Source of the DNA: a virus
Taxonomy: Duplodnaviria; Heunggongvirae; Uroviricota; Caudoviricetes
IMG/VR virus record: IMGVR_UViG_2671180458_000016
Span: 1 to 42,985 of that record
Reading direction: 5' to 3' (one strand)
DNA: 42,985 bases
How positions within the stretch are numbered: position 1 is the first letter of the stretch; every line of letters starts with the position of its first letter. This document shows positions 15,001 through 18,000 of this stretch, one piece after another. The position numbers were made by a program.

Positions 15001-18000
15001 ACGTATCAAAGAATAATTTAGGAGCCGGACAGAAGGTTGGTGAATTCACCGACTTATCGTTCCTTGCTGACAAAAATGTTGATGGATTTCTCAACAAGAT
15101 AAAGCTGCTTAATCTTCCTCCCGAAGAACTGGAAAAAATCAAGGCCAGCAAAGAGGAAGAGATAGACACGCGACTTTCCCGTCTGAATAACGATATTTAC
15201 CAGAATGAAAAGGGGCTTGGTGAAAGCGATCGTGTTTACCTTGTTGTGGCTACCGTTATTGCAACGTTGGGGATTCCGGGAAAGTTAGCACCGCTGGATA
15301 AAAAAGAACTGACCTCTTCAACGGAGGAGGACTTGCGTGATGGTGATATTATTTTCAGGAAAATAAGGAATTTTTTAAGGCTGAAAGCTGTTCCTGAAAC
15401 AAAAAGAGAAATGATTTTGCGCTCGTTGCAAAATACGCTGTGGACTGAAAACATTAACAAACCAGTCAACGGTGAAAGCCAGTTAAAGCGCGTGTTTGTT
15501 AAAGTTGTTGATGATCTTGGGGAGTATTACAAAATTGGACTGACCACCGATTTTACGGGCAAACTGTTTAATGAGATGTATCGCTGGCTTGGATTTACGC
15601 AGGACAAGCTCAATGACGTCGTTCTGACACCACCTTATGTTGCCACATTGCTGGCACGACTCGCCAGAGTAAACAAAGATTCCTATGTGTGGGATTTTGC
15701 TACAGGTTCTGCGGGATTGCTTGTGGCTGCAATGAATGAAATGCTCATTGACGCCAGAGAAAATATTCACTCACCGAACGAACTACAACTTAAGGAAGCG
15801 CAAATCAAGGCTGAACAGCTTCTTGGCCTTGAGGTGTTATCCAGTATTTATATGCTGGCCATCCTGAATATGATTTTGATGGGGGATGGTAGCTCGAATA
15901 TCCTCAATAAAGACTCGCTGGCCGATTTTGACGGCAAGTATGGATTTGGGAAAACAGGAGAAAAATTCCCTGCGGACGCATTTATTCTCAATCCTCCGTA
16001 TTCAGCTAAAGGTAACGGCATGATTTTCGTGCAGAAGGCGCTGTCGATGATGGATAAAGGCTATGCTGCAGTGATTATCCAGAGTTCAGCTGGCACAGGA
16101 AAGGCTACGGAGTACAACAAAAAAATACTCAAGGAAAATACCTTGCTGGCAAGCATCAAAATGCCTGCGGATCTGTTTATTGGTAAATCAAGTGTTCAGA
16201 CGTACATTTACGTTTTTCAGGTAAAAATTCCGCATAACGCGAAACAGGCTGTTAAGTTTATCGACTTTTCCAATGACGGCTACGCTCGCTCTAATCGCAA
16301 AAAGGCAAGAAACAATCTTGTTGATGCCGATCGTGCAAAAGAGCGTTATCAGGAGGTTGTGGATCTGGTTCACTTCGGGAAAGGTTGCCTTAATATCTTT
16401 ACGGAGGATGAATATTTTGAGGGAACAATCGATCCTGATAGTGGTGAGGACTGGAATCAGACCAGGCCAGTAGATGCTAGGCCAACGCTGGAGGATTTCA
16501 AAAAGACGGTAGGTGATTACCTTGCATGGGAGGTCTCGCAATTACTGAAAAAACAAGGTGAAAACAATTTTGCGGGAAAGTAAATTCCCCGCTCAGCGAT
16601 AAATTAAGAAGCGTTGAGTGGGGAGAGTTCAGGATTGGCGATTTGTTCTATGTGAGCACAGGCTCGCTTATCTCCTCAGGAAGATTAAAACCAGGCAAAA
16701 TCAAACGTGTTTCAGCAAAGAGCGATCAAAACGGTATCATCGGAGAGTTTGATACCGAGTTTATGGATGATGCAAGGCATTATGAAAATTTTATAAGCGT
16801 TAATTTTTTTGGAGATGCTTTTTATCATCCTTATTGTGCCAGCGTAGAAATGAAGGTGCATGTTCTTACATTAAAATCAAGTAAGTCCGACTTTAATGCA
16901 AAGCGCGGACTGTATGTTGCCAGTATGATTAATAAAGCTTTAAAGGGGCGTTTTAATTATGGTCAACAGTTATCGAGTTCCAAACTCAGAGATGGAGAAT
17001 ATTTCATCTCATTACCAGTGAAAAATAATGAAATTGACTGGTTTTTTATGGATAATTATATAGAAGAGCTGGAAGCGGCCCATATAGAAGAGCTGGAAGC
17101 ATACCTGATAGCTGCTGGGCTGAGTGATTACCAACTAACGGAAAAAGATTATCTTATCCTGGAACATTTTAAAAATATTGAATTTTCAGGCTTTCCTGTT
17201 ACTGAGTTATTCTCAGTGTGCAATACAGGAAACATATTGTCTAGAGACATCATAGAAAATAGTGGGGATGTTCCTTATCTTTGTGCTAGCCGTGATAATA
17301 ACTCTGTTAGTTCTTATATCGCCTATGATGACTCACTCTTGGAAAAAGGGAACTGTATTTTTATTGGTGGTAAGACATTCGTTGTAACTTATCAGGAGCG
17401 AGACTTTTTTTCAAACGACAGTCATAATTTGCGACTCTATGTTAACAATGAGGATGGAAGGACAAAGTTTGCTTATTTGGGCATTATTTCATGTATTTAT
17501 AGGTCTATTTCACATAAATATTCATGGGGGGATAGTGTTAGTAATAGAAAAATTAAGAACGATGTTATTTGGTTGCCAGTGAAAAATAAGTCACCTGACT
17601 TTTGTTATATAAATGACCTTATTTCAGTTGTTCATAAGCTTGTCATTAAAGATGTTGTCCAGTACGCAGAACGCAAAATGAACGCATACAGGCAAGCTAT
17701 AACAAGTCGCGGTTATGATGATTCTGGTGTCAGTTAAAAAACATTTTACAATCGTAAAAATCCTCATATCATGATAAGAATGGTTACATTGCCACGCTGC
17801 TTAACCCGCCGATGCGCGGGTTTTTTGTATCCGGAATTCTGTGGGTTACCCTGCCCCCCTTAGAAAGGTGCGACAGCAATTAATAACAAAATCTTAAAAA
17901 TCGCATATGGCACTATTAGTTTTCTAAATATTGTATATTTTAAGTATTGCAGGATAACCCTGTAACGAAGTTTGCGTAACAGCATTTTGCTCTACGAGTT

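Follow-up and report, generated by a model that had tools for sequence, protein, structure and literature searches.

The 42,985-nucleotide (nt) stretch of tailed-phage DNA analysed here (IMG/VR record IMGVR_UViG_2671180458_000016, positions 1 to 42,985; hereafter the window) carries a two-gene restriction-modification (RM) system, whose specificity (S) gene contains an in-frame tandem repeat of 24 bp. All features described below lie on the + strand unless stated otherwise. The first gene (14460-16583) encodes a BcgI alpha-like RM subunit of 707 amino acids (aa), in which a predicted N-terminal PD...EYK nuclease is fused to an N6-adenine methylase (NPPY). The S reading frame (16574-17737) follows and was assigned, on the basis of Pfam, PADLOC Specificity_II and the HsdS fold, the order TRD1-CR1-TRD2-CR2, i.e., two target recognition domains (TRDs), each followed by a conserved region (CR). 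Direct reading of the sequence and Tandem Repeats Finder placed the first repeat unit at 17057-17080 (TATATAGAAGAGCTGGAAGCGGCC, encoding YIEELEAA) and the second at 17081-17104 (CATATAGAAGAGCTGGAAGCATAC, encoding HIEELEAY), and positions 17057-17104 are thus translated as two in-frame 24-bp / 8-aa units, YIEELEAA-HIEELEAY. The units were identical at 20 of 24 positions and shared an exact 19-mer core, ATATAGAAGAGCTGGAAGC, located at 17058-17076 and again at 17082-17100. Because only about 1e-7 exact 19-mers at a fixed 24-nt offset would be expected in 43 kb of random sequence (43000 x 4^-19), such a repeat is far beyond chance. The output of Tandem Repeats Finder covered 17060-17111 (period 24, 2.2 copies, 82% matches, score 69). 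The 24-bp tandem duplication reported in the initial annotation is therefore real and was correctly located, although its boundaries (17058-17105) were 1 nt out of codon phase, which had no consequence.

The repeat lies within a + strand open reading frame (ORF) at 16643-17737, which matched Pfam Methylase_S twice. The S frame itself was open from 16562, and the codons for the conserved N-terminal residues VNSPLSDKLRSVEWGEFRIGDLF precede its first ATG, GTG or TTG codon, which is the TTG at 16643. A comparison of RM and S with all PDB chains by sequence gave no match at E<=0.01, and therefore fold comparison was used for S. The AlphaFold2 (AF2) model, built with the frame taken from 16577 and 66 aligned homologues, reached a predicted local distance difference test (pLDDT) value of 91.2 and a predicted template modelling (pTM) score of 0.70. 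The modelled protein consisted of two beta-rich domains with a 25-residue helix (residues 155-179) between them and a 36-residue helix (residues 342-377) at the C-terminus. The former, delimited in model m5eebe8fdf53a with DSSP, corresponds to the central helix CR1 (17039-17113), and the latter to CR2 (17600-17707). Foldseek analysis of the whole chain retrieved the HsdS structures 1ydx, 1yf2, EcoKI (2y7c_A) and EcoR124I (7bst_A), as well as the BsaXI S subunit (8w0p_C), in line with the TRD1-CR1-TRD2-CR2 fold and the two Methylase_S matches. The repeat occupied residues 161-176 of the model, i.e., 16 of the 25 CR1 residues or two thirds of the central helix. The position between the two TRDs, as proposed in the initial annotation, was thus borne out by the model, and the repeat is of the EcoR124I/II kind in that it is tandem, in frame and located within the central inter-TRD helix.

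The RM protein matched the PADLOC profile REase_MTase_IIG (PDLC03616, "Type IIG restriction enzyme-methyltransferase"; E=3.4e-232, aa 34-699), while S matched Specificity_II (PDLC03591/03593, "Type II specificity subunit"; E about 1e-24). A Pfam match to N6_Mtase was also obtained for RM, the VRR_NUC match was weak and below the cutoff, and NCBIfam returned only sub-threshold matches to hsdM (35.8 bits versus a cutoff of 242.75) and MADS. With NCBIfam and VRR_NUC below threshold, the nuclease assignment is based on PADLOC and on the invariant PD...EYK residues; P83 D84, E102 Y103 K104 and N511 P512 P513 Y514 were conserved without exception in 16 RM homologues. The nuclease and the N6 methylase are therefore predicted to share one polypeptide, and a separate two-TRD specificity subunit is encoded directly downstream. 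The same S gene, identical to that of the window, is carried by phage PhiR12_3, in which the RM protein is annotated as "BcgI alpha chain-like". Neither the locus nor those annotated relatives that were inspected contained an HsdR-like ORF. Judged by its domain content and gene order, the system is a BcgI-like Type IIB/IIG pair (RM fusion plus S) and not the Type I system assumed in the initial annotation. A classical Type I HsdS acting together with HsdM and HsdR would agree with the S fold, the Methylase_S matches and the PGAP name of the partner ("HsdM family"), but the domain architecture of the 707-aa fusion, which is not a methylase-only HsdM, contradicts it, as do the low hsdM score and the missing HsdR; such an assignment is highly improbable. 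The pair shares with BcgI and BsaXI both the RM fusion of an N-terminal PD-(D/E)xK nuclease with a gamma-type N6 methylase and the separate two-TRD S subunit (PADLOC; PMC3592470; PMC11997821), and these two enzymes assemble as (RM)2S (PMC3592470; PMC11997821). The RM protein lacked a strong match to BsaXI, and two-sided cleavage is predicted here from the class.

The number of 24-bp units differed among natural alleles. When 5426 complete Escherichia coli genomes were compared at the nucleotide level with the window S gene, a full-length allele was present in 20, with a length of 1095/1094 bp (two units) in 18 and of 1119 bp (one unit more) in two, SCU-104 and JNEC-KY173. In the last two genomes the flanks were identical throughout the aligned 121 bp around the repeat, where the extra unit was the sole difference; it reads CATATAGAAGAGCTGGAAGCGGCC and is located between units 1 and 2, which gives YIEELEAA-HIEELEAA-HIEELEAY. 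Proteins with the same TRDs comprised 364/367-aa forms with two units (P0003, with 330 member sequences, and P0004), 375-aa forms with three (P0005-P0011; P0005 on 107 contigs and P0007 on 69) and 383-aa forms with four (P0001 and P0002). Alleles that differ in repeat number only are therefore found in nature, both in the 364/375/383-aa series and, within the aligned region, between SCU-104 and the window. Other TRD combinations were associated with one unit (P0015, P0017), three units or four units (P0014; Salmonella P0034). The top 120 homologues carried one, two, three or four units in 2, 92, 19 and 4 cases, respectively, and among 80 loci from different species the corresponding numbers for one, two and three units were 3, 55 and 9, with 13 loci unscorable. 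The internal units of expanded alleles from unrelated phyla were identical to each other, e.g., FIAELEAQ-RIAELEAQ-RIAELEAY, which indicates repeated, independent and recent duplications. In the AF2 model of the four-unit allele P0001, CR1 formed a continuous helix of 41 residues versus 25, and CR2 was unchanged at 36; the models thus show a CR1 that extends in 8-residue modules and a CR2 that does not. The variation in copy number anticipated in the initial annotation was consequently found, with two, three and four units on the same TRDs and one to four in the family as a whole. Homologues with exactly two copies throughout and a repeat outside the inter-TRD helix, the outcome named there as contrary to the proposal, were not what we observed, as the copies ranged from one to four and lay in CR1.

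Some E. coli S alleles carried a second in-frame 8-aa tandem repeat, GLADSRTR, immediately after CR1, in 1, 2, 3 and at least 5 copies (P0038, P0045, P0050, P0052, P0054, P0094). This array is absent from the window allele and seems to form a linker of its own, variable in length, ahead of TRD2.

The precedent to which the initial annotation referred was confirmed in the literature: TAEL is present twice in EcoR124I and three times in EcoR124II, and the targets are GAAN6RTCG and GAAN7RTCG, respectively (PMC3874165). Like the Type IC enzymes EcoR124I, EcoR124II and EcoDXXI, the window S protein carries an in-frame tandem repeat in its central inter-TRD helix. In those enzymes natural alleles differ only in copy number, which has been shown experimentally to determine the spacer (N6 versus N7) (PMC3874165). 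The likeness does not extend to the unit itself or to the type of system, as the EcoR124 family members are Type I (HsdR/M/S) enzymes with a 12-bp unit encoding the 4-aa TAEL, whereas the window encodes a Type IIB RM+S pair with a 24-bp unit of 8 aa, whose spacer effect is proposed by analogy. A closer relative is known from Helicobacter pylori. Furuta et al. (2011) described 0-4 tandem 24-bp copies between the TRDs of a "Type IIG" S gene and predicted a change in recognition (PMC3077401); the published unit is CAGTGTCGGCTCGCCGAACTTGAG, encoding QCRLAELE (PMC3077401). The H. pylori homologue P0057 was 48% identical to the window S protein and contained two units, FIAELEQC-RLAELEAY, at helix positions matching those of the published unit. 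The window S subunit is thus homologous to that of HP1471/JHP1364, with a 24-bp / 8-aa unit at the same central-helix positions (QCRLAELE versus AAHIEELE) and with variable copies, from 1 to 4 in our set. Further shared features are the reassortment of TRDs at flanking repeats (PMC3077401) and an S frame that follows the RM stop and lacks a start codon of its own (Krebes 2014, PMC3936762). In contrast, the H. pylori system is chromosomal, with a poly-G tract in the S gene and a C_CCA_AAG junction, whereas the window system is a moron of a lambdoid prophage, its RM gene starts with a heptanucleotide repeat, the junction reads G_GGA_AAG, and the units are nearly identical in DNA sequence. The 24-bp repeat has accordingly already been described in the H. 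pylori homologue, and the window case adds another member. The only characterised member, JHP1364/5 of strain J99 (Hpy99XXII), methylates TCAN6TRG once given a start codon (PMC3936762); the H. pylori count of two units that we set beside TCAN6TRG is that of P0057, not of J99 itself.

The evidence is best accounted for, with good probability, by a 24-bp unit that represents an 8-residue module of CR1 and whose number affects the spacer of the bipartite target. Two near-identical units would be prone to replication slippage or to unequal recombination, by which whole in-frame units would be gained or lost. With each added unit, CR1 would grow by 8 helical residues (about 12 Å) and CR2 would remain unchanged, giving a net rotation of about 80-100 degrees. 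By analogy with EcoR124I/II, the longer CR1 would shift and rotate TRD2 relative to TRD1, and the non-specific gap would change while the half-sites stayed the same. It is from this analogy that we infer a dependence of spacer length on copy number. The increment can be estimated at +2 to +3 bp per unit, the two-unit state being equivalent to approximately N6; the ratio of 4 aa per bp in EcoR124 leads to the lower value, and a simple geometric consideration permits +3. Since the enzyme is of Type IIB, it should also excise a fragment of altered length.

Several observations weigh against an effect on the target. As CR2 is not co-extended in the models, the register of the coiled coil would have to shift, an issue that EcoR124 raises as well (PMC3874165), and the pTM score dropped from 0.70 to 0.63 in the four-unit AF2 model. 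The strong predominance of two units suggests that the length is under constraint and that longer alleles are possibly impaired. Two studies obtained no activity from cloned BcgI-like two-gene systems of this kind (PMC3936762; PMC4996451), that of B. trehalosi among them. Expression hinges on a frame-switching 5' repeat and on an S frame that lacks its own start, and some alleles may be silent. Our literature search returned no methylome or cleavage data that tie the number of units to the spacer for this S family, and the single-molecule real-time (SMRT) methylome paper on O111:H- did not include the RM-S system. Much of this would also be accommodated if the polymorphism were neutral or mildly deleterious, i.e., if slippage merely added units that lengthen or kink the helix and leave specificity unchanged or inactivate the enzyme. 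The prevalence of two units (92/120 homologues and 55/67 scorable species loci), the lack of co-variation in CR2, the frequent inactivity of related systems when cloned and the out-of-frame RM genes of several carriers, including the three-unit SCU-104, all point in that direction. We nevertheless regard a neutral or harmful polymorphism as unlikely, because the three-unit alleles are intact and widespread ORFs, as the contig numbers of P0005 and P0007 illustrate, because many phyla acquired expansions independently and have kept them, and because the equivalent change in EcoR124 and EcoDXXI retargets the enzyme precisely (PMC3874165).

The CR1-coding DNA might instead serve chiefly as a patch of homology for the reassortment of TRD1 and TRD2, with the duplication as a by-product of unequal crossing-over. 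The similarity of three E. coli genomes to the window S gene began precisely at the repeat (query position 402/416 onward), and seven others shared only about 61 bp across it. P0038 combined the same TRD1 with another TRD2, while P0015 and P0020-23 combined another TRD1 with the same TRD2, the junction being at the repeat in each case, and a similar role was proposed for the H. pylori orthologue by Furuta et al. (2011) (PMC3077401). Alleles with identical TRDs that differ by the number of units alone are left unexplained by such a patch. We give this role about even chances, and it is compatible with the preferred explanation, in which a change in unit number alters the spacer.

The junction of the two genes carries a putative programmed -1 frameshift cassette. 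The RM gene ends with GCG_GGA_AAG_TAA, and the heptamer G_GGA_AAG (16574-16580) lies in the RM zero frame, directly abutting the RM stop codon (16581-16583); the S gene is in the -1 frame and contains no ATG, GTG or TTG before its conserved N-terminal residues. A Shine-Dalgarno (SD)-like AAGGTGA (16555-16561) is located 12 nt upstream of the heptamer, and a 13-bp stem-loop (16586-16624) starts 5 nt after it, with a predicted free energy of -23.3 kcal/mol, a z-score of -7.1 and covariation across 58 loci. The arrangement was conserved across many phyla. A heptamer was present at the RM end in 79 of 80 species loci (52 G_GGA_AAA, 25 G_GGA_AAG and 2 A_AAA_AAA) and adjoined the RM stop in 75 of the 79, and the S frame was -1 in every locus where S was found, with a conserved Trp 15 codons past the slip site. 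Alternative heptamers were A_AAA_AAG in E. coli variants and C_CCA_AAG in H. pylori. No canonical start codon preceded the conserved Trp motif in 35 of the 74 complete S frames, and six frames showed an ATGA overlap. Upstream, a GGAGG/GAGGA SD-like motif occurred about 10 nt before the heptamer (-15/-14) in 57 of 85 loci. Downstream, at a distance of 5-6 nt, the 10-bp helix was paired in 97% of cases versus 32-55% in slid controls, and 23 double changes were observed versus 1.9 expected in shuffles. The locus thus combines a zero-frame heptamer of the X_XXY_YYZ form with an SD-like element before it, a structure 5-9 nt after it and a following ORF that is read in the -1 frame. The heptamer of the window is the slip site of lambda G/GT (PMC3296357), and both G_GGA_AAG and C_CCA_AAG are "highly shift-prone" in E. 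coli (PMC5009743). The cassette resembles the dnaX and lambda G/GT signals in its X_XXY_YYZ heptamer, in the SD-like element about 10 nt upstream and in the stem-loop after a 5-6 nt spacer; unlike in those signals, the zero-frame stop abuts the heptamer, and the predicted trans-frame product would be an enzyme joined to its own specificity subunit.

On balance, we slightly favour a model in which S is produced by programmed -1 frameshifting as an RM-S fusion. Ribosomes would shift at G_GGA_AAR (or A_AAA_AAG / C_CCA_AAG), stimulated by the upstream SD-like element and the conserved downstream hairpin; the fusion together with free RM would give (RM)2S, and the efficiency of the shift would set the stoichiometry. 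Termination followed by reinitiation at an AUA or GUA codon overlapping the RM stop fits less well, as it does not readily account for the conserved GGA codon and the G that precedes it, for the 16-nt spacing of the SD-like element or for the covariation in the hairpin. A start of S at the TTG at 16643, or at the ATT at 16634 as in older NCBI models, is unlikely, because either would remove about 20 N-terminal residues that are conserved and encoded in all homologues. No paper linking restriction-modification systems with ribosomal frameshifting was found in our literature search.

At its other end, the RM gene carries a perfect heptanucleotide repeat, (GACCAGC)x9 (14469-14531), which directly follows the ATG and encodes (DQRPATS)3. 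Since conservation among distant RM homologues sets in at about aa 31 of the ORF, the RM start is placed upstream of this array. Fetched E. coli and phage copies contained 31, 64, 65, 66, 83, 88 and 120 units; across 29 complete genomes the number ranged from about 23 upward, to 120 as counted directly in fetched loci, and sister isolates differed. The nine copies of the window are the lowest number seen and could result from assembly collapse. Two staggered ATGs (14452/14460), 8 nt apart, leave two of the three phases ON; from n mod 3, the RM frame was predicted to be ON in the window, JNEC-KY173 and E2855 (two CR1 units; ON through the first ATG), and OFF in SCU-104 and PhiR12_3. As the unit is not divisible by three, lies in the 5' coding region and varies in number between close isolates, the array has the features of phase variation and is a candidate ON/OFF frame switch, i.e., a contingency locus of the E. 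coli prophage. The literature search retrieved nothing on the array or its peptide. A 17-bp tandem repeat (TCAAAAAACGATGATTT, 2.1 copies) was also noted at 14425-14459, directly upstream of the RM start and overlapping the first ATG; a duplication of the ribosome-binding site or of the start region is possible.

Existing RefSeq annotation of these genes is misleading. The intact S frame is split into a "partial" pseudogene and a short coding sequence (L001, L003), and the RM start is set at an internal TTG (window position 14622), by which conserved residues are cut off. A "YXWGXW repeat-containing protein" annotated on the minus strand (window positions 14206-14541) is a reverse translation of the heptanucleotide array.

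The RM-S pair is situated between the Q antiterminator gene (13481-13930) and the genes for a SASA/DUF6645 esterase and lysis proteins of a lambdoid prophage, and its G+C content is 36-46% versus 50-56% in the flanks. Position and composition identify the pair as a moron, which in this lambdoid E. coli prophage occupies the slot held by stx in Stx phages. The tRNA genes expected at 17700-18550 from the neighbours of this slot in some relatives were not detected by ARAGORN. An ORF for a Hok/Gef-type toxin (14073-14285) lies between Q and the RM gene, and its sequence is that portion of the region which more than 4000 E. coli genomes have in common. Contigs of Providencia alcalifaciens (L008/L009) contained an RM+S cassette with a three-unit CR1 and a G_GGA_AAA junction in a phage-like region, flanked by an antiterminator gene (PF03589) on one side and holin genes on the other, the equivalent moron slot of the late operon. 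The RM protein was about 70% identical across phyla in more than 546 loci, which included Bacillota, Bacteroidota, Pseudomonadota, Spirochaetota, Saccharibacteria, Gracilibacteria, Gastranaerophilales and Lentisphaerae. This identity is unusually high for a restriction-modification enzyme and implies very frequent horizontal transfer.

If the proposed frameshift operates, it would explain those systems that have been judged "inactive, no start codon for S", and hundreds of S genes now regarded as "pseudogenised" would have to be re-annotated. It would also represent a new use of recoding, by which an enzyme and its specificity subunit are made at a fixed ratio, and in the E. coli prophage version it would be layered with the ON/OFF switch of the hypervariable heptanucleotide array and with the length repeat in CR1. 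If the number of CR1 units sets the gap, a single slippage event would provide a prophage-borne restriction enzyme with a new target. The 1/2/3/4-unit alleles would then be a ready series for engineers who wish to tune the spacer and the excised-fragment length of a Type IIB enzyme. For the bacterial host, the methylome would change, and a lysogen would restrict phages and plasmids modified by its sister strains, which would be a cheap way to diversify defence inside one E. coli lineage.

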